From an uncultured bacterium (GTDB taxonomy: Bacteria > Zixibacteria > MSB-5A5 > GN15 > FEB-12), in the NCBI GenBank assembly GCA_965372795.1, contig CBDVDR010000003.1, forward strand, positions 64,001 to 128,000: a DNA stretch of 64,000 nt, written 5' to 3'. This document shows, piece after piece, positions 8,511 to 39,832 of this stretch. A model generated the notes under the pieces. That model was not told where the DNA came from and made no database searches. It was given only the letters and a program-made list of their open reading frames with translations. The stretch's first letter is position 1. Each line of letters opens with the position of its first letter. The position numbers and the translations under genes are program-made.

Positions 8511-11500
8511 TTAGACCATTTTACTAATTGTTTTGGAAAAATATTGATAATAACAGGAGTTGATTATTTTTTTCCAGCTATCTTTTCCGTTATCGATAAT
8601 GTATTGATGACTGATGTCTGAGATAATCCTGTTGGCTTTGTCTTTAAATGAGTTGTCATTTTCATAAAGCCGTACTGAAGACTTCAAAATTAACTCAAAA
8701 ACATTCTGTTGCTGGCCATATGAAAGTGTTTCGTGATAACAACTAATGGCGTCGGATAGGTTGTTCCTCAAGCGATTTGTTTCTCCTTTAATAAAACCAA
8801 TTTCGTTCATAACGAGAATTGAATTAATACTAACCGCTTTTTCCATGGTTTGATCAATTAGGTAATTGATTTCATCTAGATACCGCTCTCCAATAAACAG
8901 TCTACACAAACCTATTGCTGAGCGCATGAAATATTCTGATGAATCAATTTCGTTTGCAAGCTTAATAGCTTCCTTATATTTAATTTTCGCTTTATCAATA
9001 TTTCCGGTATAGAATAAAACCTCACCCAAACGAATCTGACATTCGGCAAAGAGCTCTTTGTCATCAACTTCTTTTGCGAACTTAATTACTTCGAGAAATT
9101 TCGCTTCGGCATCTTCATGCTTCCCTTCGATTAAATCAATATCGCCCAGATTCCCAATTACATAATTGTGGGCATGCGTATCATTAAGTCGGGTAAATAT
9201 TTTGTCAGCGTGTAAGATTAGTTTTCGGGATGAACTGAAACGGCCCAGAATTTTTTGTATGCTTGACAGATTTCCGGAAACATAAGCCTCATCGCGGCGA
9301 TCGCCAATCTGTTTTGTTATTTCCAGAGCATGTCTCATTAATTGTTCGGCTTCCAAAAAATCTCCCTGCTCCCATTTAATTATAGCTAAATTATTAGATG
9401 TTTGTGAATGTACAATCATCCCATTGACATCTTTTCCATATTGTAAACTAAGTTCATAATTTTCTGCTGCCTCATTAAGTTTTCCTTCACCCCACAATGC
9501 CAGACCAAGTTTATTATAAGCATCAGACAGACCTTGGTAATCATCGATGTCTTTGTAAGAATTAATAGATTGTTGGCAACACTCTTGAGCCATTGTAAAA
9601 TTCCCGGAACGCCTCTCTACTTCGGCTAGTATTGTATGAATCCGAGCTGTCAATTTAGAATAATCTTGAATATCTGGGTATTTTAATACGTTTTCTAAAG
9701 CTTCCCGGCATTCATTATATTTTGATTGTTGCCAATCGAGTTGTGCTTTTTCAATAATTGCCGATGTTTTTTGGGAATCGTTATTATCTTTCTCAGCTAA
9801 TTCCTTCCAGGATTTTATCAACTTGTATGCCTTGTCCAAATCACCTTCCAAAACAAGGTATGAACTATAACTCTCATAGTAGTTATAAATATCAGAAGTT
9901 TGGATATCGTTATGTTCTATTGATTCGAGCGAGACTTCACATTGTTTAAACATACGTGATGCTTCACTAAGAGAGAATAGACGGAGAGCATCTTTAGCAG
10001 TTATGAGTGAAAAGGTATATGCTTTCTGCCATTGCTTGGATTTGAAGTAATGATTTGCCAATACTGCAGGAGAGAATGTTGCTTCAGATGATTCGTAGTA
10101 ATTGGCCACTTTCCTATGAGAAGTCAGTAGAAATGATTCGGGAAGGCAAGAGTAAATTATTGTTTGGAATTTTTTATCTGCGAAACTGAATAGTCTGTTT
10201 TCAGAATCGTACTCCAATACTTCATCCTTTTCCAAATTATCAAGCTTATTCCTCAAAGCATTCTTATCTTTATTATCAGTGGTGGTGCTTAATGCGTCCA
10301 AGCTGAACATAGTTTCAAATACAGCAGCCGATTTCAGCAATCTCTTATCAAGTTCGGGTAAAAGATCGAATCTCGAAAGATATATGTCATTAATGTTGGC
10401 AGGTATTTCTGCATCATCAAATGACTCAATTAATTCATACTTGCCAGTAAAGCTGTTTAGTTCAAGTTTGTCCTGTTTATGTAGATGATTAATAAACTCG
10501 GATATGAATTGAGGATTACTTTTCGATATATCGACTAGTTTTTCTGTAAGTTCTAATTCTCTTTTGCCATCACCAAATTGATTTTTAAAATAACTCATCC
10601 ATTCACTGTCAGTGGGTGGGGCTAATTTTAGATGCGTTATTTTTGTGTTCGATAGTTTGCCGATATTCGTATCATCTCTTAAAATTAGGATGAAAATTCC
10701 AGGAAATTGTTTAGGCGAATTTAACAGATGAAGAAGAAACTGTCTTGAATAGTCATTAATTTGATCAAAATCATCAATGATGACAACAACTGGATCAGTA
10801 ACAATTGAAGCTGTCAGCATGCTATAGAGTCCAATGGTCTTCTGATTTTTTTGTTTTTGTGATAAACCTTTACTCCAAATATTATCTTCAACTGGAACAT
10901 CAATAAAATCGCCGATCAGGGGAAGCCATTTTGATTCTATAATTTCAATTGCAAAATCTTTAAGTGATTGATAATGTTTTTTTTGAAAAATCGAGAATAG
11001 GTCATTGAGTAATTTTTTAAGAATCCAGTTTTCACCATATAGAAATGAACGACGTCCCTCAATTGTTATAGAGGGGATTTCATCATTACTTCTGATTGCA
11101 CTTTCAACCAGTGTGCTTTTTCCAACGCCAGCCTCACCGGTAATAACCATTCTCTTAATTTGCGATAAAGGAGTGGGGCTCATAAACCTTTTTAATTGTT
11201 GGTATTCTGTTTTCTGACCGATGATAGTATCGCTTTCGGTATGGCAACTTATCAGTTCGATGATCTCCCGAAATTGATGACATAAAACTTCATTACCGAT
11301 TCCCTTGAGAGATAATTTTTTATTATCAGTTTTGATATTTTCTGGTAGTATCATTCGTAGCTCATTATCTATCAGAACCTGTCCCCAAGATGCGTTAGCC
11401 ATTAATCGTGCGGACATATTAGCTGCCTCACCCATGACAGTATATTCTTTTCGTTTATCTGTTCCAACATCACCACAAAACAGCGAGCCGTTCGCAAGTC

Positions 11501-12566
11501 CAATTTTCAGGTCAAAATCAACATCAATAAGTCCCAGTAATTTTGTGGCACAATGCAAAGCATTCAGTTCATCATCTTCACGCTTTTTAGGAGCACCGAA
11601 TAAAACCAGTAATTTATGACCGTCATAAAAGGGATCAATTCGGGTGATACTCCCGCCGCTTTGAGATATGATTTCAAAAACAGATAAGAGCTTTTTATTG
11701 ATTAATTTTATTTCGTAATCAGCTTGTTCCAATTCATGGTTAACAGATGATCTAAAGTTGGCAAATAGAACCGTCACATCACGAAATTCGGATTGTGAAA
11801 TTTTCATTTTGGAAGTTATTTTGGCTCTTTCTATAAGGTCTTTAGGAAGATACTGTTCGAGTCGCACATCGTGATACATTTCTTCTTCTGAAGATGTTTG
11901 TTTGGAAATGAATATGTCCTTAGAAAACTCTTCAGTATTCTCCAAGAGATAGAAACCATCTTCTACTTGAGATAGTGAGTCATATTGTGGTAACACGCAG
12001 GCAAGATTTTTTCCTATAACCATTTGATTTATTTTGGCAAGGTCACAGGCGTGCATAACATCAGTAATCATTGAACCATAAGGTTCTGCTTCCAATCTAT
12101 AATTTACTTTACCCATTGATGCCAGACTAAAGGAACCTATCTCTGCTCCAATATGAATTTTTAAAGGAGAGTTTTGTAAATCTGATGAAGTCTTATTCAA
12201 ATTTTCGACAGTGCTTAGGGCATGATGAAAAAACTTAGTTATATCAACCGTTTTTGGAAAATATATCCAAACGGCATCTCCGGCAAACTTGAGAATATCT
12301 CCCTGATAATGAAATATCAAATCTGAGACTGATTTAAAAAACTCATTAAGAATATGTGTCAATTTTTCAGGACCAAGTTTTTTATCAATGGATAATTTGC
12401 GAGTAAGCTCTGTGAATCCGGAAGCATCCAGACAGGCTACAATGCCTTCATGGTGAGTGAAATTGTGAAACTTTCCCGATAGGGAATTACTATACCACTC
12501 TATTAATATCTGAGGTAGATGAGGATTAACAAATGCCTTCGCATTGGAAATTTGTTTAACCACCAT
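8511..12566 (-). CDS. Class III adenylate/guanylate cyclase (two cyclase domains) + STAND-type ATPase + TPR repeats
   Basis: LDASGFTELT, GDILKFAGDA, LFGAP, EYTVMGEAANMSARLM; Walker A GEAGVGKST and Walker B VIIDD; C-terminal TPRs. Confidence 0.88.
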   Translation of the reverse strand: MVVKQISNAKAFVNPHLPQILIEWYSNSLSGKFHNFTHHEGIVACLDASGFTELTRKLSIDKKLGPEKLTHILNEFFKSVSDLIFHYQGDILKFAGDAVWIYFPKTVDITKFFHHALSTVENLNKTSSDLQNSPLKIHIGAEIGSFSLASMGKVNYRLEAEPYGSMITDVMHACDLAKINQMVIGKNLACVLPQYDSLSQVEDGFYLLENTEEFSKDIFISKQTSSEEEMYHDVRLEQYLPKDLIERAKITSKMKISQSEFRDVTVLFANFRSSVNHELEQADYEIKLINKKLLSVFEIISQSGGSITRIDPFYDGHKLLVLFGAPKKREDDELNALHCATKLLGLIDVDFDLKIGLANGSLFCGDVGTDKRKEYTVMGEAANMSARLMANASWGQVLIDNELRMILPENIKTDNKKLSLKGIGNEVLCHQFREIIELISCHTESDTIIGQKTEYQQLKRFMSPTPLSQIKRMVITGEAGVGKSTLVESAIRSNDEIPSITIEGRRSFLYGENWILKKLLNDLFSIFQKKHYQSLKDFAIEIIESKWLPLIGDFIDVPVEDNIWSKGLSQKQKNQKTIGLYSMLTASIVTDPVVVIIDDFDQINDYSRQFLLHLLNSPKQFPGIFILILRDDTNIGKLSNTKITHLKLAPPTDSEWMSYFKNQFGDGKRELELTEKLVDISKSNPQFISEFINHLHKQDKLELNSFTGKYELIESFDDAEIPANINDIYLSRFDLLPELDKRLLKSAAVFETMFSLDALSTTTDNKDKNALRNKLDNLEKDEVLEYDSENRLFSFADKKFQTIIYSCLPESFLLTSHRKVANYYESSEATFSPAVLANHYFKSKQWQKAYTFSLITAKDALRLFSLSEASRMFKQCEVSLESIEHNDIQTSDIYNYYESYSSYLVLEGDLDKAYKLIKSWKELAEKDNNDSQKTSAIIEKAQLDWQQSKYNECREALENVLKYPDIQDYSKLTARIHTILAEVERRSGNFTMAQECCQQSINSYKDIDDYQGLSDAYNKLGLALWGEGKLNEAAENYELSLQYGKDVNGMIVHSQTSNNLAIIKWEQGDFLEAEQLMRHALEITKQIGDRRDEAYVSGNLSSIQKILGRFSSSRKLILHADKIFTRLNDTHAHNYVIGNLGDIDLIEGKHEDAEAKFLEVIKFAKEVDDKELFAECQIRLGEVLFYTGNIDKAKIKYKEAIKLANEIDSSEYFMRSAIGLCRLFIGERYLDEINYLIDQTMEKAVSINSILVMNEIGFIKGETNRLRNNLSDAISCYHETLSYGQQQNVFELILKSSVRLYENDNSFKDKANRIISDISHQYIIDNGKDSWKKIINSCYYQYFSKTISKMV

Positions 12567-12924: not shown

Positions 12925-14397
12925 TTACGGTAAACGAATTATAATAACTGGGTAATTATCTTTATTATTTTCTATCACAAATTCTCCCTCATGATGATGA
13001 ATTATCTGCTCAATATAATCCCAGCCAAAAATGCTATACTGGTTTAAAGCTTTTCTGACATTTTCAGGTTCCAAAATAGCAAGATGGGGAATAATTCTGA
13101 TTTCAGAAAATCTACTATCCGGCGAACGGCATAAGTCGATTTTTATTGAATATTGAATATCCTTTTCTAAGTTGAGCAAAGCGTCCGAAGCCGAGTTTAG
13201 TAAACTAAATATCATATTCTGAAGTGATACCTCATTCATATGAACTCGACTCGGAAAATCTTTATGCACATCCAGACTAAATTCAATATTTTCAACTTCC
13301 TTCATCGACTGCCAATGTTTCAGAATGGTCTTCATCAAAACACGAATATCTATAAATGTAAAATTTGATTCTGTTTTATAAGTGTCAACTAAATGACGGG
13401 AATCATTTTTCAGATCCATGATAGTGCAGTTGACTTCTCGATTGGAACTTTCGATACCTTTGGTATCGTTATCTGAAATATCTTTTGACAAATTATCAAT
13501 ATTACTTTTGAGGATATCTATCTCGACAAAAAACTGTTTAGCCAATTCATAGGTAGATTGCTTGGTATTTAAATACCGGTCTTCAATTGCTTTAATACTT
13601 GTAAATCCCGAAATTTCTGTCAAGTCCTGTCCCATTACGAGATAGAGTAATTCGTCTCTATAGGTTGTTAAAATGGTACAGGTCAAAAACGCCGGAAATT
13701 CCTCGCCGACCCGCAAGCCGTTTACTTTACCACTCCAGGTGTTTTGCAATTCCTGCTGACAGTCTGAAAAATTGAAATGACTGAAAAGGTCATCAATTTT
13801 ATATTTTTTATCTTTATTGAGGCCAAATATCCTGATGGCTGACTTATTCATATTAAAAATGTCGCCAGATTTAGTTACGAGAAGAATTGCTGATGGTGAT
13901 TGATCAATTACCGAATCAAGAAAACAGTTGAGTTCATTCAATCTTTGATTGGTTTCCGTTAGCTCAAGATTATTCTTCTCAAGATCCATTACTCTTGATG
14001 AATCAGACTCGCGTAGCTTGTTACTTAAACTCTCTAGGACATTTATTGCAAATGAGGGTTTTTCCTTGATGATTTTTTCAAAATTACTCTTGGTTATCTC
14101 CAGAACTTCACAAGCAGTCTTGGATATGACAGATGCAAATCGTGGAGACTCTTCAACCAAGGCCATCTCGCCAATGAATTCACCGGCACTACGAGTTGCA
14201 ATTGTTACTGGCTGGTTTGTTTCTGAGCTTAATTTAGTGATTTTAACATCGCCCCTAAGGATTAATAACATGGTAGTACCAATATTACCCTCAGAAAATA
14301 TTATATCACCCGGACTGTATTTCGAGTATTTTCCGGCTAACTTAACCAGAAATAAATCAAGTGTGGAATTTTCCAACCAAGTTTCTTCATTATTCAT
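12925..14397 (-). CDS. cNMP-binding + PAS + degenerate histidine-kinase-like protein
   Basis: GEFIGEMALVEESPRFASV (cNMP), coiled coil, PAS-like IDQSPSAILL. The HATPase-like tail lacks a clear H-box and G-boxes. Confidence 0.75.
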   Translation of the reverse strand: MNNEETWLENSTLDLFLVKLAGKYSKYSPGDIIFSEGNIGTTMLLILRGDVKITKLSSETNQPVTIATRSAGEFIGEMALVEESPRFASVISKTACEVLEITKSNFEKIIKEKPSFAINVLESLSNKLRESDSSRVMDLEKNNLELTETNQRLNELNCFLDSVIDQSPSAILLVTKSGDIFNMNKSAIRIFGLNKDKKYKIDDLFSHFNFSDCQQELQNTWSGKVNGLRVGEEFPAFLTCTILTTYRDELLYLVMGQDLTEISGFTSIKAIEDRYLNTKQSTYELAKQFFVEIDILKSNIDNLSKDISDNDTKGIESSNREVNCTIMDLKNDSRHLVDTYKTESNFTFIDIRVLMKTILKHWQSMKEVENIEFSLDVHKDFPSRVHMNEVSLQNMIFSLLNSASDALLNLEKDIQYSIKIDLCRSPDSRFSEIRIIPHLAILEPENVRKALNQYSIFGWDYIEQIIHHHEGEFVIENNKDNYPVIIIRLP

Positions 14398-19794: not shown

Positions 19795-20283
19795 ATGGGT
19801 TGGTTCACAAAGATTTTTTCTGGAAGCGTTGGCACATTAGTTGAAAAAGTTGGGGGAGTGGTTGATGGTTTTCATCTAAGTGGAGAAGAAAAACAGAAAT
19901 TCAAAGTTGAGATGGAGGCTTTACTTCAAAAACGAGATTCTGAAATTGAAGAGACAATAAGAACGCAATTACAAGCAAAAGAAAGAATTCTGGTTGCTGA
20001 ATTAACTCAGGGTGACAGTTATACTAAACGTGCCCGTCCCACCGTTGTCTATGCCGGATTAGGCTTTATTTTCTATATTTATTGTTTAGTACCTGTTGTT
20101 GCGCAAATTTTTAATGCACAAATGCCTATGATGGAACTTCCCACCGCCTTTTGGGCAGGTTGGTCGGGAATTGTGGCAACCTGGAGTATAGGCCGAACCG
20201 TGGAAAAAAGAGGTGGCGGGAATCGAGTTACCAGAGCAATAACAGGCAGTCGTCTTTTTGATGATGATGCGCCCGAAGGATAA
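19795..20283 (+). CDS. Holin-like protein (3TM / gene-transfer-release holin family)
   Basis: N-terminal amphipathic helix, S.EEK, GDSYTKRARP, TM segments, GRTVEKR; AGGAGG RBS; directly upstream of an amidase. Confidence 0.75.
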   Translation: MGWFTKIFSGSVGTLVEKVGGVVDGFHLSGEEKQKFKVEMEALLQKRDSEIEETIRTQLQAKERILVAELTQGDSYTKRARPTVVYAGLGFIFYIYCLVPVVAQIFNAQMPMMELPTAFWAGWSGIVATWSIGRTVEKRGGGNRVTRAITGSRLFDDDAPEG

Positions 20284-20291
20284 ATTTTATT

Positions 20292-21119
20292 TTGATAATT
20301 AAAGATCATAAACTGGAAGGTGATAAAGTCACTTATCAAGGGTCGCCAAATTTTGGAGCCAAATTTGATAATAATGATCTGGATACAATAATAATTCATT
20401 ATACGGCAGGTTCATCGGCGGAGTCATCAGTTAGAACGTTATGTAACCCAGATTCAAAATCCTCGGCACATCTGGTAATAGGTCGGAACGGTTCAATATT
20501 TCAATTAGTACCCTTTGATACTATATCCTGGCACGCTGGCAAAAGTAGTTATTCCGGCCGTCATGGTTTCAATAAGTATTCTATTGGGATTGAAATAGAT
20601 AATGCCGGAAAATTATCACACAGCGGTGATAAGTATGTTTCCTGGTTTGGGAAGAATTATAAAGAAAATGAAGCCTTAAAAGCTATTCATAAAAATGAAA
20701 CAGAATCCGGTTATTGGCATATTTATAATGAAATCCAACTCAGCTTGGTTCAGGAAATTTGTTCGCTTCTTATAAGTAACTATGGAATTAAAAGTATTTT
20801 AGGTCATGATGAAGTCTCACCGGGGCGAAAAATAGATCCCGGTCCTGCCTTTCCAATTGATAAAATAAGAGAACATTTACTTTTTAGTGATCGCAGTAGT
20901 GATCGCCCGATTGAAGTCCCTATCAATAAAAACCAAGGAATAATTACAGCATCTAAATTGAATTGCAGATCAGAACCATATATTAGTTCCAAAATTGTTA
21001 GGGAACCTCTATCGAAAGGTGATATTGTTGAGATTCTTCATGAAAGTGATGGCTGGTATAAGATAGAATCCAAAATTTATGTCTGGGTAAAGAAGGATTA
21101 CGTCAAAACTATAAAATAG
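20292..21119 (+). CDS. N-acetylmuramoyl-L-alanine amidase (Amidase_2) with C-terminal SH3b
   Basis: IIIHYTA, SAHLVI, WHAG, SIGIEI, GHDEVSPGRKIDPG; SH3-like LNCRSEP...GWYKI. No signal peptide. Confidence 0.92.
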   Translation: MIIKDHKLEGDKVTYQGSPNFGAKFDNNDLDTIIIHYTAGSSAESSVRTLCNPDSKSSAHLVIGRNGSIFQLVPFDTISWHAGKSSYSGRHGFNKYSIGIEIDNAGKLSHSGDKYVSWFGKNYKENEALKAIHKNETESGYWHIYNEIQLSLVQEICSLLISNYGIKSILGHDEVSPGRKIDPGPAFPIDKIREHLLFSDRSSDRPIEVPINKNQGIITASKLNCRSEPYISSKIVREPLSKGDIVEILHESDGWYKIESKIYVWVKKDYVKTIK

Positions 21120-21487
21120 ATTAGTTTCGTCTAAATTGTAAAATCTAATCAAACAGGTTGTGTCTGGGAATCCCTCATTAAGATTGCAGGTGTTTACAAT
21201 TAATACAAATTCAAGAAAAATAAAGATGGCAGGATCACAACGATCTTGTCCAACTTGGAATGATCTTTAGATTAGTTAACAACAGGAAATGGGTTACTTA
21301 AAATTGATAAGGATCATTAATGGTGATGGGATAGATAGAAAGGGGCAGACGAGGTCGTCTGCCGCCCACGGAGATGGCAGGATCACAGGGATTCTGCCCA
21401 ACTTGGAATGATCTGTAAAGTCAATTATTACAAAAGATCACATCTTAAATTCAAATAACTTCATATAAAATTAGACTTCGTGATTCA

Positions 21488-21542
21488 GGAACGATTGTTC
21501 CCCGTTAGTTCATCGAAATCACAATATCTGAACGATAGTTCA
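21488..21542. promoter_or_regulatory. Two GAAC-N4-GTTC palindromes (candidate activator UAS or LexA-type boxes)
   Basis: GGAACGATTGTTCC at 21488-21501 and TGAACGATAGTTCA at 21529-21542, 41 bp apart. Confidence 0.55.
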
Positions 21543-21572: not shown

Positions 21573-21589
21573 TTGGCACAGTTTCTGCA
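21573..21589 (+). promoter_or_regulatory. Sigma54 (-24/-12) promoter
   Basis: TTGGCACAGTTTCTGCA = TGGCAC...GG-N10-GC, upstream of an operon whose downstream neighbour is a GAFTGA activator. Confidence 0.75.
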
Positions 21590-21747: not shown

Positions 21748-22395
21748 ATGCATGATTTGGATCAGGTCTCATTGGAAATGGATGATTACGAAACAGAGTA
21801 TCTTGAAGATGATGCTGAAAATTTTGCTGATGAGTATGGTTTTGATGATGAGAGTCCCTTTGATGATGCAGAAGAGATGGAGTTAGCTTCTGAGTTGTTA
21901 TCTGTATCAAACGATGAAGAATTGGAATATTTCCTGGGTAGTCTCATCAAGCGAGTATATCGCGGTGTTAAGAAAGTTGCCAGAAGTCCAATTGTCAGAG
22001 CTATTGCAAAGGTAGCAAGACCGCTGGTCAAGAAAGCATTGCCATGGGCTGGCCGCGCAGTGGGAACCTATTTTGGTGGACCTGCCGGTGGTGCTCTTGG
22101 TGGAAGATTGGCATCGTTTGCAGCCTCTAAATTAGAAATTGATCTGACCGGACTTACTCAGGAAGAAGCAGAATTTGAAGTTGCCCGTAAGATGGTAAAA
22201 TTGATTGGTGCTGCGGCTAAGAAAGCTGCTACTATGCCTCAAACAGGATCACCCGCTGCGGTTGCATCTACTGCTATAAAATCAGCTGCTAAGAAAATCG
22301 CTCCCGGTTTAGTACAAAGTGCTCATAAAGCATTTGGATCAAGAAGCGGTCGCTGGGTTCGTCATGGACGTAAAATTATCATCCACGGAGCATAA
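21748..22395 (+). CDS. Hypothetical protein: acidic N-terminal leader + cationic amphipathic / glycine-zipper region
   Basis: Residues 1-61 have 26 D/E and no K/R. The next ~68 residues have 14 K/R, no D/E, and GGPAGGALGG. C-terminal SGRWVRHGRKIIIHGA. AAAGGA RBS. Confidence 0.85.
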   Translation: MHDLDQVSLEMDDYETEYLEDDAENFADEYGFDDESPFDDAEEMELASELLSVSNDEELEYFLGSLIKRVYRGVKKVARSPIVRAIAKVARPLVKKALPWAGRAVGTYFGGPAGGALGGRLASFAASKLEIDLTGLTQEEAEFEVARKMVKLIGAAAKKAATMPQTGSPAAVASTAIKSAAKKIAPGLVQSAHKAFGSRSGRWVRHGRKIIIHGA

Positions 22396-22406
22396 GGAAT
22401 TATCAA

Positions 22407-23756
22407 TTGATACGCAATTCTTCAAAATATCTCTTGGATCAAGAAGCTCACGCTCTTTTATCACGACTTGATAGTGTAAAGCCGTTTTCTATGCACATGC
22501 CGATGGTCATGGCGGCGGCTATATCTCCAGCGGCTATGTCGGCGATAGAAAACATGATTCAAGTTCAGGGTAAGCGATTGAGGACGATGATCAAATCTTT
22601 TATCATCTGGTTAAAATCATCAGAAGGTCAAAGATCATCTCCTCAAATAGCCCAAAAGAAATTCACACTGTTGAGATTACGCTTTGGCATTATCTTGTCG
22701 CAGTTTGATATCTTTGCGGAAGCTGTTACCCAGCGAAGTGAACATGAGTATGGAGTGAGTTTATCGGCTTTGGATGTTCTTGCCGAGGATGCTTTGAAGA
22801 TTGACGGGTTCAGTTTTGATGAACCACCGATGATTTGTTATTTGGATCGTGGTTTGGGTGCGGCAATTCGCCGCGCCCAGACTAAGTTACCGGGTGGCAC
22901 TAAAAATCCGGTTTCTATTATCCGTGTTCCGCGTGAAAGAATGATCGGATCTGCTGTTGCCAGTTCGATTGTTCATGAAGTTGGCCATCAAGCGGCAGCA
23001 ATATTGGATCTTGTACCGGCTGTTAAGAAAACTTTTTCTAAAATGGTGGCACAGGATAAACAACATGCTGATATATGGTCAGTTTATCAACGATGGACTT
23101 CAGAAATGCTTGCCGATTTTTGGAGTGTGGGAAAAGTAGGCATTACCGGTTGTTTGGGCATTATGTCTGTTGTCAGTCTGCCCCGACCATTGGTATTCCA
23201 TTTTTCCGAACGTGACGTACATCCAACCCCCTGGTTAAGAGTCAAGCTTAGCTGTGCAATGGGTAATCTATTATACCCTCATCCTCAATGGATGAAATTA
23301 GCCGGTATGTGGGAAGAATTGTTTCCATTGGATGGACTTGATTCAAAAGTACGTCTCAAAATTGAACGGTTACAACGCTTTATTCCTCAAGTTGTATCTT
23401 TGATTGGGAGCCATAAATGTAATAAATTAAATGGGAAACAATTAAAAGAAATAATGCCTGTCGAGTCCCGACAACCAGATCAGTTACTTTCCAGATTTTC
23501 AAAATGGAAAGGACAGACGCAACTGATGAACGAAGATCCTCCGACCTTAACATTTGCTGTAATTGGGCAGGCGAAATTCAACAGACTATTAAACCCGATG
23601 GATGAAAGTCCTCTTTTAGACAGCATTTTTAAGTACTGGGCGTTGAAAAGGGCAATCAATACCGGGCGAAAATGTACTATGGGAGACTTACAGACGAAAA
23701 AAATGAATAATCGTGAGTATATGTTATCTAGAAAGGAGATTAACTATGCCAATTGA
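22407..23756 (+). CDS. Hypothetical protein with HExxH zincin-like motif
   Basis: IVHEVGHQ followed by SEMLADFW (possible third Glu ligand), and HPTPWLRV. Confidence 0.75.
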   Translation: MIRNSSKYLLDQEAHALLSRLDSVKPFSMHMPMVMAAAISPAAMSAIENMIQVQGKRLRTMIKSFIIWLKSSEGQRSSPQIAQKKFTLLRLRFGIILSQFDIFAEAVTQRSEHEYGVSLSALDVLAEDALKIDGFSFDEPPMICYLDRGLGAAIRRAQTKLPGGTKNPVSIIRVPRERMIGSAVASSIVHEVGHQAAAILDLVPAVKKTFSKMVAQDKQHADIWSVYQRWTSEMLADFWSVGKVGITGCLGIMSVVSLPRPLVFHFSERDVHPTPWLRVKLSCAMGNLLYPHPQWMKLAGMWEELFPLDGLDSKVRLKIERLQRFIPQVVSLIGSHKCNKLNGKQLKEIMPVESRQPDQLLSRFSKWKGQTQLMNEDPPTLTFAVIGQAKFNRLLNPMDESPLLDSIFKYWALKRAINTGRKCTMGDLQTKKMNNREYMLSRKEINYAN

Positions 23757-25638
23757 ACTTATTTACTCGTCAGGACCATTTTTTGAAGAGGAGATCTTTG
23801 AGATTGTGATCTCAGGTCATGAAAGTGGGAATGAGTATAATATAATCGTTGAAGGACCTTCAAAAAGTTTAAAATGGGAATGGACTCAGAATTCCGGGAG
23901 ATTTGATTGGCCCAGGATTGATAGTTCCGGAAATAATACCCAGGATTTAATTGGCACTCAAATCCCAATTGCAACTTTTAAGTCAAATTATGGTGCTTAT
24001 GCACCTGCGGGTTCTTATCAGGTTACAGTCCAATTAATAGATAAAAAGGCAAGAAATAAAGCGTCTAAAATTATTGAAACTATTGTAAGCGACTTTCAGA
24101 TTCAGATTCAATTGCCACCCACGAATGTTCAACCTCCGGCACAGGCGAATGCAGCAATTGATGCCATGCAAAATATTAATTCTACATTAGAAAAGGCTGG
24201 AAGTACACGTTTGCTTCCTCCGGGGCATGAAGTCACTGAGAATTTAGCCCTATGGGGGGTGATTAAAGGATCGGTTATTGAATTTGATAAACTTGAGAAA
24301 AAGCTGCTTGAAGTAATGTGTAATGAACAAATAAATGATCATGAAAATGATCATGATAAAATTCCCGAAAAAATTACTTCAAAACGCCAGTCGTTAAAAG
24401 ATATTAATTTAGCTAAAAATTTAAGCAATAATAAAGATCGAACCAATAAAGATATTTATTGGGATGCGAATTCTTATGAAACATTAAAAAATCAAACCGA
24501 TATTTTTCTGCTTGAAGAAGTTGGTTCCGAATGGGATGTTAAAAAAATAGCTGAAGTAATTCAAAAGAAGCTCAAGAAATATATTGACCATCCATCAGTC
24601 ATTTCGGAATCAAAAATCCAGGAATGGATTGAAAATTATAAGTGTGAAAACCTTGATTGCTATGTATTTCCATATCTTTGTGACATCAAAGAAGTCAAAG
24701 ATATGCCTGAGCCGGATGAATCAAACTGTAAGGGGGTTTTACAACAAAGAATGTGTCATCCCTTATTAGTTGAGCTAATCTGGTGTTATTGGCATGAAGA
24801 ATCAATGCTTTCTCAGGCAATGAAAGCAATCAACTTGCGTTTTCAAAATAAACGTATGAAAAAGGGTCCTGATGCGCTTAGTGCTCTGAATACAAATCCT
24901 TTAAGAAAGTTAAGCAATCTTCTCTGGGGTCATATTCAAGAAGAACAAAAACGCTTAACAGTAAAAAGGAGAGCATACGAGTATGACCATCATTATGGTA
25001 TAACATTGCATGGTGATGCGGTTGGAACATTTATGCCGGCCGATAGTCGTACCAGATTTCTTGAATCATTTCATCGCTTACTTCATCTTTGTACTAACTT
25101 TTACAAAGAATTTGATGATATGACAATTCAGGCTGACGGATTTCCAATTAAAAGCGCCTTGCGTGAAGTTCACATGAATCTCGCCGAAGGTGCTCATAAT
25201 CAATATGGTGATATGCCCTGGATTGCAAAAAGAGAAATGCTAATTGAACAATTTATACTTTCCCGTCCGGAAATGAGAGAATTTTTGGGTGGCAGAGTGA
25301 TGGTTCCTTATAAAGAAGGATGGATGGAAGCAGTTGACACTATGAAACGTTTACAGGGGTGGACTGATACCAGTGTCGAACAATTTGCCTCACTGGGACG
25401 CCTTGGTGAACAAATTATACTTTCAATTCGATATGGAAACTGGAATGCAGAAGGAATTAATGCTGATCATGCTTACCAATGGGCAGCCTTTTGGAGAGAT
25501 GAAATTCAGGATTATATCCACTCTTACCGGTCTGTGTCAGGTGTTGATTTAACTGAACCAAGTCAGGTGGATGGAACTCAACCATCGGTCCATCTAAAAA
25601 CCAGATTAGATGCCCAACAAAAGAAAGTTGCCGGTTAA
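23746..25638 (+). CDS. Hypothetical protein (variable N-terminus, W/H/Y-rich C-terminal domain)
   Basis: Long ORF; ATG 23746 follows AAAGGAG. C-terminal ~290 aa contain ELIWCYWHEE, RRAYEYDHHYG, EGAHNQYGD. Confidence 0.8.
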   Translation: MPIELIYSSGPFFEEEIFEIVISGHESGNEYNIIVEGPSKSLKWEWTQNSGRFDWPRIDSSGNNTQDLIGTQIPIATFKSNYGAYAPAGSYQVTVQLIDKKARNKASKIIETIVSDFQIQIQLPPTNVQPPAQANAAIDAMQNINSTLEKAGSTRLLPPGHEVTENLALWGVIKGSVIEFDKLEKKLLEVMCNEQINDHENDHDKIPEKITSKRQSLKDINLAKNLSNNKDRTNKDIYWDANSYETLKNQTDIFLLEEVGSEWDVKKIAEVIQKKLKKYIDHPSVISESKIQEWIENYKCENLDCYVFPYLCDIKEVKDMPEPDESNCKGVLQQRMCHPLLVELIWCYWHEESMLSQAMKAINLRFQNKRMKKGPDALSALNTNPLRKLSNLLWGHIQEEQKRLTVKRRAYEYDHHYGITLHGDAVGTFMPADSRTRFLESFHRLLHLCTNFYKEFDDMTIQADGFPIKSALREVHMNLAEGAHNQYGDMPWIAKREMLIEQFILSRPEMREFLGGRVMVPYKEGWMEAVDTMKRLQGWTDTSVEQFASLGRLGEQIILSIRYGNWNAEGINADHAYQWAAFWRDEIQDYIHSYRSVSGVDLTEPSQVDGTQPSVHLKTRLDAQQKKVAG

Positions 25639-25655: not shown

Positions 25656-26762
25656 ATGCTGGATTTTACTTCGGCTCTTTATCTGGGAATGAAGCACCCG
25701 AGCTGGTCTCTGCCATCATGGGACCAGCTTACTTTGGGTGTTCCGGGAATTCTTTATGAGCCGCCAATTGTAACCAAATTATCTGGTGAACTATCAAGAC
25801 TAATTGGTTGTAGATGCGCAACTTTTGCACCCTCAACCTTACATCTCTTTTGGGATTTGTTTAACTCGCTCCGAGCCTACAATGTAAAAATATTTTATGA
25901 TTCCGGAATTTACAATATTGCACGGTGGGGAATAGAGCGGGCTGAATATAAAGGTATTAAAGCCTTTCAATTTTCGCATCATGATCTGTTCTCTCTGCGA
26001 CTATTGCTTCAGGAACAAATTAGTGGAAGGTGCAAGCCGATAATAGTTTGTGATGGTGTTTGTCCGACCTGCGGAGATTATGCTCCCCTTAATGATTATT
26101 ATGAAATCATTCGGGATTTTGGAGGACAATTGATAATTGATGATACCCAGGCATTGGGAATTTTGGGGAAATCTCCTTCGGGAAGTAATCCTTTTGGACA
26201 CGGAGGGGGTGGCAGTTTGCAATATCATAATATCGGAGGACCGGAAATTGTTGTAATCGGATCTTTGGCAAAAGGTTTTGGTGTACCGGCGGCTGTGATG
26301 GCATCAGGAAAAAAAATGATGAAAAATTTTAAAAATAAAAGTAAAACCAATATTAGCTGCAGTCCGGCATCATTGGCGGATTACAGCGCAATTTCACGAG
26401 CCTTGATATTGAATAAAAATTGCGGTGAAAAACTCAGAACAAAACTTTTAAGAAATATCATCTTCTTCAATACTATTATAAATAAAAATTCAAACCTGTC
26501 TGATAATATATTTCCAATTCAATCCATCAATTTTCAAAATAATAACATGGCTTATGATACGTTTTTACAACTTAAGCAATCAGGAATAACAACTGTTTTG
26601 AGTGAAAATGAATTTAAAAATCCCTGTATCAAATTATTAATTACATCATCGCATACTCAAAAAGAGTTATATAAAACAGCTTCAATAATAAATAAAATTA
26701 TGAATCGAAATTCTTACCATTTTCAAAGTAGCGGAGGGTTGTATGGCAGTGTGTCGATGTAA
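25656..26762 (+). CDS. PLP-dependent alpha-oxoamine synthase family (BioF/KBL/SPT-like), divergent
   Basis: LDFTSALYLG, FSHHD, IIDDTQALG (canonical DEAH), GSLAKGFG (PLP-binding lysine). Confidence 0.8.
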   Translation: MLDFTSALYLGMKHPSWSLPSWDQLTLGVPGILYEPPIVTKLSGELSRLIGCRCATFAPSTLHLFWDLFNSLRAYNVKIFYDSGIYNIARWGIERAEYKGIKAFQFSHHDLFSLRLLLQEQISGRCKPIIVCDGVCPTCGDYAPLNDYYEIIRDFGGQLIIDDTQALGILGKSPSGSNPFGHGGGGSLQYHNIGGPEIVVIGSLAKGFGVPAAVMASGKKMMKNFKNKSKTNISCSPASLADYSAISRALILNKNCGEKLRTKLLRNIIFFNTIINKNSNLSDNIFPIQSINFQNNNMAYDTFLQLKQSGITTVLSENEFKNPCIKLLITSSHTQKELYKTASIINKIMNRNSYHFQSSGGLYGSVSM

Positions 26763-27969
26763 TAAAAGACAAAATGAATTTTTAGATGATGAGTGGATTG
26801 GAAGTTATAACCTGGAGCAATATAATATTCTGAATAAACAACAAATAGATCCGGAAATATTGTTATCTGAAAATGAGTTTACCGAAACGGAGATGTCCAA
26901 TGAATCAGAAGATGAATTAGAAAATGAATTTGCAATTACAAATGAGATATCATCAACTCGCAACCGTACTTATGTGAAATGGGTTCAACATTCTCTAAAT
27001 AAAATATTGGGCATAAGACTTGGGGTCGATGGCATTTATGGAAGAAATACAAAACAAGCATTAAAATATTTTCAAACATTTGCAGGTATTTCTGTTGACG
27101 GGATTGTTGGCTCTCAAACAGAAAAAGCACTTACTGAATATAGTACTATAAAAAAGCCAGTTGCTATATCTTCATCCCGTTCACATCAAGTTGATTCAGT
27201 TCGTTGGTGTCCTGTAAAAAGTAAAAGAGCAACTTTGAAATGCACATCTCCCGGAACAAAAAAATGTCCAGCTATATCAAAATTATTATGTGTACCTCAT
27301 ATCAATCAAATCCCACTTGAGTATGTCTCAGGAGTAGGGGTTGATCGCAAAACAGGTTTGCAGGTTATTACTCGCAGAACAACAAGGACAAATTTCAAAA
27401 TGACGTCCGGTGTATATAAAGGATTGGCTGGATTTGTGATATATATGAAGAAATTTGGAATACCGGTTGAAGCAATACTATCTCAAGGGGCGCATCTTTG
27501 CCGCTGTGTCGGTAGAACTAACAGATTATCACAACACTCATATGGCAATGCGTTTGATTTTGCCGGAGTCAGATGGGCACTGATAAACAAACCTCCCAGT
27601 CGTTTAAGGGAAACAATCGTTCATAATTATTGGAATATAGAGCAACGCGGGCTGCTCAGGAGGATAAATGCATGCCTCCGTTTAAACTTCAGTCTGGTTC
27701 TTGATTATAATTATAACTCCGATCATTTTTCTCATTTTCATGTCGAGGCGGGGAGTGGTATGAACCCCCGAAGCAGGAGTACGATCCTATTTGTTCAAGA
27801 GGCGCTTGGACATATTCTTCAACGAGATATATCTGTTAATGGGAGGATGGATGCTTATACCCAGCAGGCGATAATTGATTATTCCGGGAATGATGAAAGT
27901 GTAATTTCCAACAGCACTGAATTAAATAGTATTTTCAAAAACTTGTTTTCAGAAATTGCTGCCGGATAG
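26743..27969 (+). CDS. Peptidoglycan-binding + extensin-like (LAS/M15-type) peptidase protein with acidic leader
   Basis: WVQHSLN..VDGIYG..T..A...FQ..VDGIVG (PG_binding_1); CR..LSQHSYGNAFDF and HFSHFH; second PG-binding-like segment at the C-terminus. Confidence 0.8.
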   Translation: MAVCRCNKRQNEFLDDEWIGSYNLEQYNILNKQQIDPEILLSENEFTETEMSNESEDELENEFAITNEISSTRNRTYVKWVQHSLNKILGIRLGVDGIYGRNTKQALKYFQTFAGISVDGIVGSQTEKALTEYSTIKKPVAISSSRSHQVDSVRWCPVKSKRATLKCTSPGTKKCPAISKLLCVPHINQIPLEYVSGVGVDRKTGLQVITRRTTRTNFKMTSGVYKGLAGFVIYMKKFGIPVEAILSQGAHLCRCVGRTNRLSQHSYGNAFDFAGVRWALINKPPSRLRETIVHNYWNIEQRGLLRRINACLRLNFSLVLDYNYNSDHFSHFHVEAGSGMNPRSRSTILFVQEALGHILQRDISVNGRMDAYTQQAIIDYSGNDESVISNSTELNSIFKNLFSEIAAG

Positions 27970-27994: not shown

Positions 27995-28759
27995 ATGATA
28001 AATTTAAATAAAAATTCAAAAAATATCCCAGTCATAGATTCTCATTGTCATTTTGGATCTGGTGAAGGCTTAACCCACCATTGGAACACAAGGGCAAATT
28101 TAAGCAAGTATAAACCCAGAGCAAGAGCTGCCGGAATAATTCGCACTGTTTTATTCCCGGTTATTACTACCGATTGTTTAAAAGCAAACAGAGAAGTTGG
28201 TCTGTTTATTAAAAAAAATCCAAATAAGTATTTTGGTTTTGCTATGATTCATCCCGTCATTGATAAAAATAGAGTGTTCAAAATGATTGAAGAATCGGTT
28301 GTGAAATTTGGTTTTTGTGGAATTAAAGTTCATCGCCATAGCGGTAGTATTACCAGAGAAATCTGTGAAGTTGCTCAATATTTTTCGATACCAATATTAT
28401 ATGATGTGATGGATGATGCCGGGTCGATTGAATTTTTTGCAAATGAATATCCGGAGGTGAATTTTATTATACCTCATCTAAGTTCTTTTGGAAATAATTG
28501 GAAAGCTCAAAAAAGTTTTATTCCATATCTGACAGAATACCCTAATGTGTTTACTGATTCTTCAGGTGTTCAATGGTTTGATTTGTTGAAGGAAGCTTTT
28601 GAAAAAGCTGGTGCTGAAAAAATACTTTTTGGTTCGGACGGTCCCTGGCTACACCCTGCTGTTGAACTTTCGAAAATAATGTTGTTAACAACAAATCGGG
28701 AAATGTTATATTTAATGTTAATTCAAAATATTCTCAGACTTACAAATCAAAAACTATAA
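27995..28759 (+). CDS. Amidohydrolase family protein (Amidohydro_2)
   Basis: IDSHCH, GIKVH, PHL, DSS, KILFGSDGP. Confidence 0.88.
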   Translation: MINLNKNSKNIPVIDSHCHFGSGEGLTHHWNTRANLSKYKPRARAAGIIRTVLFPVITTDCLKANREVGLFIKKNPNKYFGFAMIHPVIDKNRVFKMIEESVVKFGFCGIKVHRHSGSITREICEVAQYFSIPILYDVMDDAGSIEFFANEYPEVNFIIPHLSSFGNNWKAQKSFIPYLTEYPNVFTDSSGVQWFDLLKEAFEKAGAEKILFGSDGPWLHPAVELSKIMLLTTNREMLYLMLIQNILRLTNQKL

Positions 28760-28797: not shown

Positions 28798-30240
28798 TTA
28801 ACTAATAATATTTTTTAGGGTTTCATATTTTTTTTCAAGCTGTTGTGCCCATCGTTTTGAGCACTGCAGTTGATTGGCCGCATCCGAAAGTATTTTTTCC
28901 TTTTTAATCTGATTTCCATTTTGTTTTTTAAGTACATCATTTATTACAATTTGCAAAGCCATCTCTCTGATTTTTTCAATTATAAGTGTCAGTCCATTAC
29001 CGCTAAATAGTGCCCGTCTTAAAGAGGATTCCAAATCTCTATCGGGCCAAAGGATATCCTCTTCTGAATCACTTAGAAAATCCTCTTCAGGGATACAACC
29101 AATTGATAGAAGGGTTCTGTCACTTGCAAGATGAGCAATTTTGAGAACCAGATGTTTTAATTCTCTAACATTTCCGGGATAATTTCTGTTATATAAAAAA
29201 TCCATCACATGTTGATCTAAAACAAACGCCGTAGATTTATTATTGAACTGATTTAGAAAATGCTCTACTAGCAATAAAATATCATCTCTCCGTTCACTTA
29301 GAGAAGGTAATTTGAATAACCAGTTTGTGATGCGAAAATATAAATCGCTTCGAAAATTCCCCTGAGCAACATCCTTTTTGATATCTCTATTAGTTGCACT
29401 AATTAATCTAAATTTGGTTTTTCTCCAAACACTTGAACCGACTCTTTGATATGTTCCCTCCTGCATTACGCGTAATAGTTGAGACTGCAACGTCAGCGGT
29501 AAATCACCTATTTCATCTAAAAATAGGGTGCCTCCATTAGCAATTTCAAAAGCACCTTTTCTTGAGTTTACAGCTCCTGTAAAAGCTCCTCTTTCATGTC
29601 CAAAAAATTCACTGCCAGAAAGTTCGGGGACAATAGTGGTGCAGTCTAAAATTACATATTTACCTTTATTTTGTTTGGGATCCAAATCGTGAATTAGATT
29701 GGCAATTACTTCTTTTCCTGTCCCGCTTTCGCCGGTTATCAAGATCGAATCCAGAGTAAAATAAGCAACCTCTACAACTTTTCTAATTACATTTTTCCAT
29801 AGTTTATTATTACCAATAACGGCATTTTTTGAACAAGAAATTTTTAAAAGCTCTTCAACTTTTGACCAGCGTTTTATTCTATAAAATATCTCATCTGGTG
29901 TAATAGATTCTGATTCCCAGGATAAAAAATCTACCGATCCGGCACGAACAACTTTTTTTGCAAACTGATAATTTTGTTTATTATCCTTCAGCCCTATAAC
30001 CAGTACGCTTGAGTATATTTGCAAACTGCTAATAGTGGTGAATAATTCGTCATTTAGATCATCACAAAATAAAACATTTAAACAGTTATCACTTACAGTT
30101 AATTGTTTTGTAGATTCAATCTCTTCCAAACCAAATTTAAGGAATTTGTTACGAACAATATTTTCAATCAAACTATTTGGTTTACAAAAAAAATGAAGTT
30201 TGATGATAAATAAATTATTATATGAAAACAATAAACACAT
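28798..30240 (-). CDS. Sigma54-dependent transcriptional activator (bEBP) with degenerate receiver-like N-terminus
   Basis: [41 protein letters not shown]; atypical C-terminal HTH. Confidence 0.92.
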
Positions 30241-38700: not shown

Positions 38701-39832
38701 CTCTATTATTTCAATCCCTATTACTTTTGAAGATAATGTTATAGGAGTTTTGTATCTTGATCATCACACGATCCCCGAATTATTTGATAAGGAAGATATC
38801 TTATTTATTAATTCAATTTCGAATATCATTGCAATAATGTTAAATACAATTATTAAATATAAAACTATCAAAGGACTAAAAGAACAATACCAGCAAATAT
38901 CTGACACATCAATCAACTCGAATTTTATCAGTAGAAATAATGAGATTAAACTTATTCTCGATCGAATACCATCAATTGTTCGTTCAAATAAACCGGTTTT
39001 AATAATTGGTGAGAGTGGGACCGGTAAAGAAATTATCTCTCAATTAATTTATGAGGAAAGTTTAAGAAAAGATAAACCATTTCTAAAAATCAACTGCTCG
39101 GCTATTTCTGCCTCAATGATCGAAAGTGAACTATTTGGTGTTGCTCAAAATGTCGCAACCGGAGTCAAGGAGAGAGAGGGTAAACTATCTGCTGCTGACA
39201 CCGGTACATTACTTTTTGATGAAATTGGGGATATGTCCTTTGATCTGCAATCCAAACTACTTAGAGCAATTGAATATCAGGAGTTTGAAAAAGTCGGCAG
39301 TAACCGAACAATTTATACTGACATACGATTTTTGTATGCGACCAATAAAAATTTGAAAGATTTAATTAGATTAGGCGAATTTCGTGAAGACTTATTTTAC
39401 AGGATTTCTACAATTACGATAAATATTCCTCCGTTACGAGAAAGAAAAGAAGATATTGAGCTTTTAATAAAACATTTTTTATCAAACTCTGAAAATCCAA
39501 AGAAAAATCCTATTATTTTACTTGAGGCATTAAAATGTTTAATAGCCTATGACTGGCCAGGTAATGTTAGAGAATTAAAGGGTGTGATTGATAGTTTATG
39601 TGTGATCTATGCCAGCCTTGAAATTGATAAGAATAAATTGCCCGAACATATTCTAAATTATATTCCTGATAAAAGCTATGAAAATGAAAATGAAATTGAA
39701 TTTGAAAAAGCAAAAATTGAAAACGCTTTTATAAGAAATAATGGCAATCAATTGAAAACCGCTAAAGAACTAGGTATCCCCAATTCGACTTTAAGATATA
39801 AAATTAAAAAATACCATATCAAAATAAAATAA
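35717..39832 (+). CDS. Ser/Thr kinase-like + TPR + GAF + sigma54 AAA+ + Fis-HTH regulator
   Basis: HCDIKFDNI, GTPTFIPPE; TPR region; GAF (GAERG, IGVLYLD); [41 protein letters not shown] loop is replaced by NVATGV. Confidence 0.88.
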   Translation: MKDNELTNYDLLELLNENGNFQSWKAINRKTNRLCFLKCSLNNSDLQLTNKFLTKSYNHQKDISHPQIVTAQSKRIEEGRCIVEYPYLEPNDWMQLSCERFRNNPIKVLTQIACILDYIHSYNLVHCDIKFDNIFINSSDQIKLIDLDFLVAANSKPQGLLIGTPTFIPPEIETNDIILTQSDNYSLGKQIEKALDTPASDLNISKELFTNIKSFSECLLNTDPWNRSNNLIETLYKCNLIDSKTYQTFLRDLLIDILNSELIKSKLTDVNVTPESIISILNKKKIIIPTPEIVHNLIDAYKHNASNTKNTLISYLEETKIIKLESYWHLQNDDNQLFDFLIELKNLSGGELNKDSLILNSPDSLEQKIELIQNSTSEEDKYFKLFATQQIIDNYFNLNNFDNNIIKKYLLEFTQQAISLNRLKLALEYYEKLGNICELSLDAQIERIVISILLGELDNAKNIIKELENNTSDQIRLDIYKAWLYAITGKMSDAIDVIEEILNIPKSEITPKNYISSNYVYAIIHWMKGDYEKALKFLLISFEKSKNSESKYNIVSIASSLAILFGDIGDFNESIKYCKLAIKEAITPLDLIRVQHIYITLGYAYTRISDFSKAQFWLEKYHHLQLYYFSGTRLVSYSLAKGFNYSTQSNFLESKNLLIEAINLSNQFMDFKNYGKAYYNLSINEMESGNFSKCKYYLKEANTIFTKSKDDASVKELEIISVLNYYFNNEGNINNLHSIIDSLIRFNCNYVLCLCYFHQILNDCKIEEIQKSITNLFEQKAYLKTSDVPLFKVLYELGYSIKDTGNLEQFINVLKKCYRILSAASQKFLSALLAKKISELYESSNKNKHAINYLNEARKNFVSLKNETALHKIDDKLSLLKNFNQTNNNYLEHLSSISKIIKDIENYNSSLSKLLEFAVDQTGAERGVLFRCNEENKLQIIASVNCHFDNLEDIKDFSLQVPTKSTEEFKAVIIANALDDKRTKKYESIIQNNILSIISIPITFEDNVIGVLYLDHHTIPELFDKEDILFINSISNIIAIMLNTIIKYKTIKGLKEQYQQISDTSINSNFISRNNEIKLILDRIPSIVRSNKPVLIIGESGTGKEIISQLIYEESLRKDKPFLKINCSAISASMIESELFGVAQNVATGVKEREGKLSAADTGTLLFDEIGDMSFDLQSKLLRAIEYQEFEKVGSNRTIYTDIRFLYATNKNLKDLIRLGEFREDLFYRISTITINIPPLRERKEDIELLIKHFLSNSENPKKNPIILLEALKCLIAYDWPGNVRELKGVIDSLCVIYASLEIDKNKLPEHILNYIPDKSYENENEIEFEKAKIENAFIRNNGNQLKTAKELGIPNSTLRYKIKKYHIKIK

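Follow-up and report, generated by a model that had tools for sequence, protein, structure and literature searches.

In animals, the precursors of cationic peptides such as the prodefensins and cathelicidins contain an anionic pro-piece which balances the cationic part. In bacteria, membrane-permeabilizing toxins equipped with a glycine zipper include Tse4 from a type VI secretion system (T6SS), TelE of the type VII secretion system (T7SS), and CdzC/CdzD of Caulobacter. Phage-type holin-endolysin cassettes and the so-called 'type 10' secretion bring together signal-less peptidoglycan hydrolases and a small protein which is not an enzyme, their transcription being tightly controlled, and the bacterial gasdermins are encoded beside a dedicated protease and are inhibited by a terminal segment of their own chain. 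Here we analyzed a gene cluster present in a stretch of 64,000 nucleotides (called the window below) of contig CBDVDR010000003.1, which belongs to an uncultured bacterium of the Zixibacteria. The first gene of this cluster, an open reading frame (ORF) with an ATG start located at positions 21748..22395 of the forward strand, encodes a protein of 215 amino acids (aa), which a sequence-only reading had taken for the precursor of an antimicrobial peptide (AMP) or pore-former. In the family to which this protein belongs, the negative charge of the N-terminal part closely follows the positive charge of the rest. The 215-aa protein may be the charge-masked, holin-like, membrane-active part of an inducible lysis or effector-release cassette, a reading to which we attribute a probability of approximately 0.45.

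The resemblance to animal AMP precursors holds as far as the charges are concerned, since an anionic N-terminal piece balances a cationic part within one chain, and here the two parts covary across homologues. It does not extend further: the 215-aa protein is bacterial and cytoplasmic and shows no homology, signal peptide, or disulphide core, its 'mature' part would comprise about 150 aa including a glycine zipper, and its cleavage is hypothetical. As in Tse4, TelE, and CdzC/CdzD, the likely membrane-active element is a GxxxGxxxG motif in a Gly/Ala-rich segment, but no sequence match with these toxins was found, and the zipper segment is too little hydrophobic to form a transmembrane helix. 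Neither T6SS, T7SS, or type I secretion genes nor an immunity gene are conserved in the 79 related loci analyzed, and both the acidic mask and the sigma-54 operon are peculiar to the 215-aa family. These loci were taken from one-genome-per-species collections, and since many of them are cut by contig ends, the numbers of partner genes given below are lower bounds. Like the holin-endolysin cassettes, the cluster encodes signal-less peptidoglycan hydrolases along with a small protein devoid of enzymatic function, and its transcription is tightly controlled. Unlike them, it has four additional conserved genes, its small protein shows neither a transmembrane helix nor a match with any holin family, and neither the family nor the cluster was detected in any of 50,697 phage records. 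As in the case of the gasdermins, a putative pore-former adjoins a dedicated peptidase and would be inhibited by a terminal segment of its own chain; the 215-aa protein nevertheless gives an unrelated, all-helical model without any match in the PDB, its inhibitory part would be N-terminal and electrostatic, and the putative HExxH peptidase is of no known family.

Charge balance and architecture of the 215-aa protein

Charge statistics were computed over 118 homologues, each of which was divided into a leader (the part up to the F-L-G motif) and the remainder. The net charge averaged -27.1 +/- 7.1 in the leader, +20.4 +/- 6.1 in the rest, and -6.7 +/- 3.0 in the whole protein, and the negative charge of the leader tracks the positive charge of the rest with a Pearson coefficient of 0.91 (0.89 when only the variable acidic tail is set against the basic rest). 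In 59 independent, non-overlapping nearest-neighbor pairs, the differences were still correlated (r = 0.80; Spearman 0.60). Upon permuting the partners of leaders and rests (1000 permutations), the standard deviation of the total charge was 9.35, with a minimum of 7.98, as compared with the 3.0 observed. The idea that the acidic part neutralizes the cationic one is thus supported by the covariation itself, by its persistence in independent pairs, and by the narrow spread of the total charge; the acidic tail is therefore titrated against the basic body. Should the membrane-active reading hold, this would be, to our knowledge, the first example from bacteria of an acidic tail quantitatively matched to a cationic, membrane-active body.

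The cationic segment had been assumed to be amphipathic, and this feature proved to be conserved: the mean maximal hydrophobic moment of the helix amounts to 0.79 (mean z 3.1 versus shuffled sequences, p<0.05 in 97% of the 118 homologues). At residues 62-101 of the window protein, the hydrophobic moment reaches up to 0.80. The median net charge of this segment in the homologues is +12 over 43 residues. The 215-aa protein has no signal peptide, its N-terminal KD12 being 0.71, as compared with 2.8-3.6 in the case of five exported proteins encoded in the window. The tests on charge covariation, amphipathicity, and signal peptides in this family are new here. The parts of the protein are as follows:

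21748..21852, forward strand, residues 1-35: M-H-D N-terminus, followed by a disordered low-complexity tail composed of D/E and aromatic residues
21853..21930, forward strand, residues 36-61: conserved acidic helix pair (E-E-M-E-L-A..L-L, then E-L-E-x-F-L-G) opening each repeat module
21931..22050, forward strand, residues 62-101: Lys/Arg-rich amphipathic helices with 11 K/R and 0 D/E
22051..22131, forward strand, residues 102-128: glycine zipper GxxxGxxxG, in which G106, G110, G111, G114, and G118 are invariant or nearly so
22132..22338, forward strand, residues 129-197: second conserved acidic/basic helix (E-G-L-S-x-E-D-Q-E-F-E-V-A-R-type), then Ala/Lys-rich helices up to A-P-G-L
22339..22395, forward strand, residues 198-215 and stop codon: basic C-terminal beta hairpin G-R-W-x-R-x-G-x-x-I-x-x-x-G-x

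Most of this architecture had been recognized in the sequence-only reading. Residues 1-61 do contain 26 D/E and no K/R, and none of 200,000 shuffles of the protein gave at least 26 D/E and no K/R in the first 61 positions. The abrupt switch in charge is also real, no acidic residue being present from residue 62 to residue 128, but the number of 14 K/R given for the stretch FLGS...LPW was wrong: this stretch (residues 62-100) contains 11, and 14 K/R with 0 D/E is true only of residues 62-128. The glycine zipper GGPAGGALGG was found at residues 110-119, and the second acidic helix, LTQEEAEFEVAR, at residues 136-147, where it overlaps the start of the predicted helix 138-162. What had been called an Ala-rich linker and a basic beta tail corresponds to an Ala/Lys-rich helical part followed by a predicted C-terminal beta hairpin (203-206/209-212).

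The structure was modeled with AlphaFold2 on 20 homologues (mean pLDDT 66.5, pTM 0.57). Residues 1-33 are predicted to be disordered (pLDDT <50), and helices were obtained at residues 40-51, 56-70, 81-97, 138-162, 169-184, and 186-195. The pLDDT values range from 84 to 90 in the first two helices and from 83 to 88 in those located after residue 138, up to residue 180; the region of the glycine zipper is of low confidence. No family in Pfam, NCBIfam, PADLOC, or PHROGs matches the window protein. The only match obtained in a profile search of the PDB was a designed helical repeat (E 0.014), and Foldseek gave no match between the model and the PDB at E<=0.001.

Cleavage had been placed near residue 61, at ELEY|FLGS. 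This is not borne out, since the switch lies inside a single predicted helix (56-70, pLDDT ~85) and the motif is repeated in the internal modules of relatives. The E-L-x-x-F-L-G element therefore looks like a structural one and not like an obvious leader/core boundary, because it is located within a predicted helix and recurs in modules devoid of an acidic tract. If a cut does occur, the model suggests that the disordered tail (about residues 1-38) is a likelier place than 61/62.

The family is large. Among 1.84 billion proteins, 2,639 representatives were found at 50% identity, including 1,203 with E<=1e-30. The 215-aa protein is matched at E<=0.01 by 670 cluster representatives of comparable length, and 68 longer proteins match as well. 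It spans many phyla, and its core is conserved at 45-60% identity across them. All 20 aligned sequences share M1, H2, and D3, and 93 of 120 homologues start with MHD. The length of the tail of acidic and aromatic residues is highly variable (26-90 aa across homologues). GxxxGxxxG is present in 118 of the 120 homologues, and the A-P-G-L motif is conserved in the family alignment. In the C-terminal hairpin, the 20 aligned sequences have G201, R202, W203, R205, G207, and I210 in common; the hairpin motif occurs in 98 of the 120 homologues, nearly always at the very C-terminus, and most of the 111 family ORFs listed show it.

In the long relatives, the module extending from the acidic helix pair to A-P-G-L occurs two to four times per chain. 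The M-H-D start and the acidic tract are present on the first module only and the hairpin on the last only, and the E-L-x-x-F-L-G element recurs in every internal module, where it sometimes reads exactly E-L-D-Q-F-L-G-G. Two or three tandem copies of the gene are present in 29 of the 79 loci. Ten of 20 family members gave weak matches with the glycine-zipper Pfam families and C19orf12 (best E 0.0032). Over the acidic helix pair, two long homologues pass the gathering cut-off (27.8) of the Pfam family TRI4_N (PF23135), namely P0128 (30.0 bits) and P0125 (28.0 bits); the window protein gave no TRI4_N match at E<=0.01, and a single one of the 20 aligned members matched this family, at E 0.085. 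Literature searches for 'TRI4' returned only papers on fungal trichothecenes or unrelated subjects, and since the meaning of TRI4 in the case of PF23135 was not found, the match may reflect composition. In one relative (P0178), a PG_binding_1 protein is apparently fused in frame to a family module. Another possible fusion, between a family copy and the HExxH gene in locus L031, was rejected because its middle part reads as an out-of-frame translation, probably due to a frameshifted assembly.

The sigma-54 cluster and its variable cargo

In the 79 loci, the conserved operon runs as follows: a sigma-54 promoter, one to three copies of the 215-aa gene, the genes encoding the HExxH protein, the 640-aa protein, and the BioF-like protein, a variable cargo, an amidohydrolase gene, and a convergent gene encoding a sigma-54 activator. 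Among the carriers are members of the Desulfobacterales, Entotheonella, Chloroflexota, Nitrospirota, Acidobacteriota, Bacteroidota, Verrucomicrobiota, Planctomycetota, Alpha-, Beta-, and Gammaproteobacteria, and Actinomycetota; some are culturable, such as Rapidithrix thailandica, Nitrosomonas halophila, Methylocapsa palsarum, Palleronia pelagia, and Cupriavidus/Caballeronia strains. The window contains the following elements:

19795..21119, forward strand: pair consisting of a holin with three transmembrane helices (3-TM; GTA_holin_3TM) and an endolysin-like Amidase_2-SH3 protein, directly upstream of the sigma-54 promoter
21489..21541, forward strand: near-palindromic 12-mers GAACGATTGTTC (21489-21500) and GAACGATAGTTC (21530-21541), 41 bp apart, 33-85 bp upstream of the -24 element
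22407..23756, forward strand: HExxH protein, 449 aa, with H-E-V-G-H-Q at residues 190-195 and a conserved S-E-x-x-A-D-F-W including E233; in at least 77 of the 79 loci
23746..25638, forward strand: protein of about 630 aa (the '640-aa protein'), with a variable N-terminal beta sandwich and a conserved all-alpha C-terminal domain; in at least 70 loci
25656..26762, forward strand: homologue of the BioF/Kbl-like pyridoxal phosphate-dependent alpha-oxoamine synthases (Aminotran_1_2); in at least 54 loci
26743..27969, forward strand: cell-wall enzyme with an acidic N-terminus, PG_binding_1 and Extensin-like_C, in the variable cargo slot; matches endolysin PHROGs
27995..28759, forward strand: Amidohydro_2/TatD-like metal hydrolase; in at least 38 loci
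28798..30240, reverse strand: sigma-54 enhancer-binding protein (Sigma54_activat, 1.3e-57), convergent; in at least 50 loci, nearly always on the opposite strand just past the operon

The claim that the 215-aa gene is the first one after the promoter fits these data: a canonical sigma-54 -24/-12 element, TGGCAC-N5-CTGCA, is present at 21574-21589 on the forward strand, 174 nt upstream of the ATG, the genome encodes sigma-54 (rpoN), and an activator gene closes the cluster. Upstream of the first family gene, a strict sigma-54 pattern was found at a distance of at most 400 nt in 35 of the 79 loci, versus 33 of 2000 random segments of 410 nt. The two 12-mers, judging from their sequence and position, are candidate binding sites for the sigma-54 activator. 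The N-terminal domain of this activator (about 130 aa) has no Pfam match and resembles by eye a degenerate receiver domain; the 79 loci have no conserved sensor kinase. The intergenic region of 628 nt also contains a direct repeat of 46 nt (21224-21269 and 21372-21417, 87% identical, 148 nt apart) and a terminator-like hairpin on the minus strand (21363-21344).

The HExxH protein is encoded by the next gene in 77 of the 79 related loci. H-E-V-G-H-Q is invariant in its alignment and is followed downstream by a conserved Glu, from which the protein may be taken to be a putative zinc metallopeptidase of no described family. Only chance matches were obtained when 24 members were compared with Pfam, and a single one (E 1.2) in a profile search of the PDB; in the Atlas, it falls into unnamed clusters only, the nearest named ones being Peptidase_U49 and M48 (score 0.77). 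The helical domain of the 640-aa protein is rich in invariant H, E, W, and Y (model pTM 0.64) and may constitute a new enzyme family. Ig/FN3-like matches (Z ~6.6, VIA-align) are restricted to residues 18-122; a PDB profile search gave no match, the Atlas gave nothing above 0.76, and the top Foldseek rows for the helical domain, which are di-iron helical enzymes (E ~0.14, TM 0.10-0.16), are too weak to be of use. The three core proteins (215-aa, HExxH, and 640-aa) thus belong to no described family. The BioF-like protein falls far below the cut-offs of every NCBIfam equivalog. The highest KD19 values among the conserved operon proteins of the window, 1.79 (BioF-like) and 1.55 (HExxH), both lie inside enzyme cores, and there is no clear transmembrane helix. 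Beyond the core set and its antisense shadows, no further gene family is present in more than 11 of the 79 loci.

The cargo slot, bounded by the BioF-like gene and the amidohydrolase gene, yielded 68 candidate ORFs; 59 of them were scanned, and 45 of these 59 gave Pfam matches. The domains most frequently found were PG_binding_1 (21), Trypsin-like (12), OmpA-like (10), Amidase_2 (6), Muramidase (2), and M20 (2); GH25, Glucosaminidase, M23, M15, M74, and an LCAT lipase were found once each. Not one of the 68 ORFs begins with a hydrophobic stretch of the signal-peptide type, all the KD12 values being below 1.8, as compared with the 2.8-3.6 of the exported proteins mentioned above. The cargo protein of the window, which has no signal peptide either, has a KD12 of 0.07 and contains 16 D/E in its first 60 residues. 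Acidic and aromatic N-termini were observed in 18 of 45 cargo proteins versus 5 of 249 control ORFs, and they are followed by an Arg-rich tract in 6 of 45 versus 0 of 249. Since the profile of the acidic helix pair does not match the cargo proteins, what these have in common with the 215-aa protein is a composition and not a motif. Many cargo proteins begin with C-x-C-x-x-C (often H...C-x-C-x-x-C) followed by an acidic/aromatic tract, several of them with E-P-F near residue 9; examples are L013:14764-16428, L038:13401-15584, L040:6376-7374, and L061:16171-17262, and the cargo protein of the window begins with M-A-V-C-R-C. This element may represent a zinc knuckle or else a recognition tag common to these proteins.

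The 215-aa gene was not found in 60 relatives belonging to the same genus, family, and order, and the GC content is 0.42 at 22-24 kb versus about 0.35 in the surroundings. The only plasmid records containing the family are three, of the megaplasmid or chromid type. In view of this absence from relatives, of the raised GC content, of the absence from phage records, and of the few megaplasmids, the cluster seems to be an accessory island located on the chromosome and disseminated by horizontal transfer. The holin/amidase pair located upstream is possibly part of the same acquired island, outside the conserved cluster: the holin was found in none and the amidase in one of the 79 loci, and a search of 40 of the relatives did not reveal the holin. 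No account of the cluster was found in the literature, and the portion of Kaur et al. (2020; PMC7159879) considered here does not describe it.

Two further genes of the window encode large multidomain proteins. The protein encoded at 35717-39832 (1371 aa) is a fusion of a Ser/Thr protein kinase with TPR, GAF, a sigma-54 activator AAA+ domain, and HTH_8, which is unusual for an enhancer-binding protein. That encoded at 8511-12566 on the reverse strand (1351 aa) carries an adenylate/guanylate cyclase domain together with an AAA_16 ATPase and extended arrays of TPR, and its gene adjoins that of a cyclic nucleotide-binding/PAS protein at 12925-14397.

A possible mechanism and the competing explanations

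If the 215-aa protein is indeed the membrane-active part of a lysis or release cassette, the polyanionic tail would hold the cationic body, with its amphipathic Lys/Arg helices, GxxxGxxxG zipper, and basic hairpin, soluble and inert in the cytoplasm, the size of the tail having been tuned during evolution to the positive charge of the body. We infer membrane binding, oligomerization, cleavage, and a lytic outcome from these features. Once the activator fires, the operon would be expressed and the mask removed or displaced, in the simplest case by the adjacent HExxH metallopeptidase, which would cut the disordered tail and not residue 61. The unmasked body would then bind the anionic cytoplasmic membrane, oligomerize via its glycine zipper, and breach the membrane, so that the signal-less wall hydrolases, proteases, or lipase might get to the cell wall. 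The HExxH protein is the probable unmasking peptidase; the prediction of its complex with the 215-aa protein gave a score of 0.00 in two runs in which the controls did not fold, which speaks neither for nor against binding.

Several points weigh against this explanation. Holins are defined by transmembrane helices, and none is predicted in the 215-aa protein, the maximal KD19 of which is 0.84 versus 2.17 in the neighboring GTA_holin_3TM protein; no segment being hydrophobic enough, the protein could therefore act on membranes only by way of its amphipathic helices or its glycine zipper. The protein offers no identifiable cleavage site, and its moderately confident helical model (pTM 0.57) could correspond to a soluble fold. 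A classical 3-TM holin is already encoded just upstream in this genome, so that this genome does not strictly require another protein to breach the membrane. Lastly, a simple lysis model does not explain the roles of the HExxH protein, the 640-aa protein, the BioF-like protein, and the amidohydrolase.

The cassette might instead be directed against other cells, the 215-aa protein being an antibacterial glycine-zipper toxin which, together with the cargo enzymes, would attack the envelopes of neighbors from outside after release by lysis of a subpopulation or by an unrecognized export route, and the acidic tail protecting the producer. The cargo is diverse and variable, as in polymorphic effector arsenals, the distribution is patchy and apparently due to horizontal acquisition, and both the zipper and the cationic amphipathic helix would suit a toxin; the adjoining holin-endolysin pair is a possible release device. 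The carriers include Ensifer adhaerens and Saprospiraceae, which are known or suspected bacteriolytic lineages. This explanation nevertheless appears to be unlikely, given that the 79 loci have no immunity-like gene, secretion apparatus, or transporter in common, that signal peptides are missing, and that many carriers, such as Nitrosomonas, Methylococcales, and Geobacter, are not known antagonists.

Somewhat more doubtful is the idea of a non-lytic adaptor, scaffold, or chaperone, in which the acid-tagged cargo, the 640-aa protein, or both would be bound by a modular helical protein that would organize a packaging or export platform in the cytoplasm or at the envelope. The repetition of the module two to four times per chain, the possible fusion to a cargo protein, and the moderately confident helical model would be in line with this role, as would the acidic/aromatic N-terminal tracts common to the cargo and the 215-aa protein, which suggest a common handling. 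Such a role leaves the invariant glycine zipper, the cationic amphipathicity, and the tight titration of charges unexplained, and no shell, ATPase, or channel partner was identified.

It is improbable that the protein is a regulator or a binder of polyanions, either as a PspA-like feedback partner of the activator or as a basic protein binding nucleic acid, teichoic acid, or lipopolysaccharide, the acidic tail being an autoinhibitory mimic. Its gene is the first one in a sigma-54 operon with a dedicated activator, as is pspA, and its Lys/Ala-rich helices and strongly basic body would be suited to this purpose; but the Foldseek search of the PDB with the model (pTM 0.57) gave no fold match to PspA/ESCRT-III or DNA-binding folds at E<=0.001, and a regulator would not usually occur as tandem paralogues or in multi-module form. 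Very improbable, lastly, is a ribosomal peptide or bacteriocin precursor cut after a double-glycine-like leader and then exported or modified: E-L-x-x-F-L-G-[G/K/S] resembles the double-glycine leader consensus E-L-x-x-I-x-G-G, some internal modules have the exact E-L-D-Q-F-L-G-G, one relative gave a weak type-A lantibiotic leader match (E 0.00053, below the cut-off), and tandem paralogues occur in the 29 loci mentioned above, but the 79 loci share no C39 peptidase, ABC exporter, or known modification enzyme, the long 'core' keeps 45-60% identity across phyla instead of being hypervariable, and the motif, which is part of a predicted helix, reappears within repeat modules.

A bolder proposal, which we likewise consider to be unlikely, is that the operon constitutes an unrecognized system for protein release or translocation by electrostatic masking, in which sigma-54 would trigger the synthesis of polycationic proteins capped by a polyanion, comprising the glycine-zipper protein and the acid-tagged, signal-less wall hydrolases, proteases, and lipases, along with a dedicated HExxH peptidase which would remove the caps. 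The uncapped zipper protein would then open the cytoplasmic membrane and let the acid-tagged enzymes through or carry them, in altruistic lysis or in the killing of neighbors, and the BioF-like protein, the amidohydrolase, and the 640-aa protein would be further parts of the machinery. Such a system would be the natural counterpart of the engineered 'activatable cell-penetrating peptides'.

If the 215-aa protein does act as the charge-masked membrane component of an inducible cassette, this would be a new and broadly distributed means by which bacteria breach their own envelope, or that of a rival, on command. The cassette may then explain regulated lysis, the release of DNA or vesicles, or antagonism in groups of environmental importance, among them nitrifiers, methanotrophs, cable bacteria, and rhizobia.

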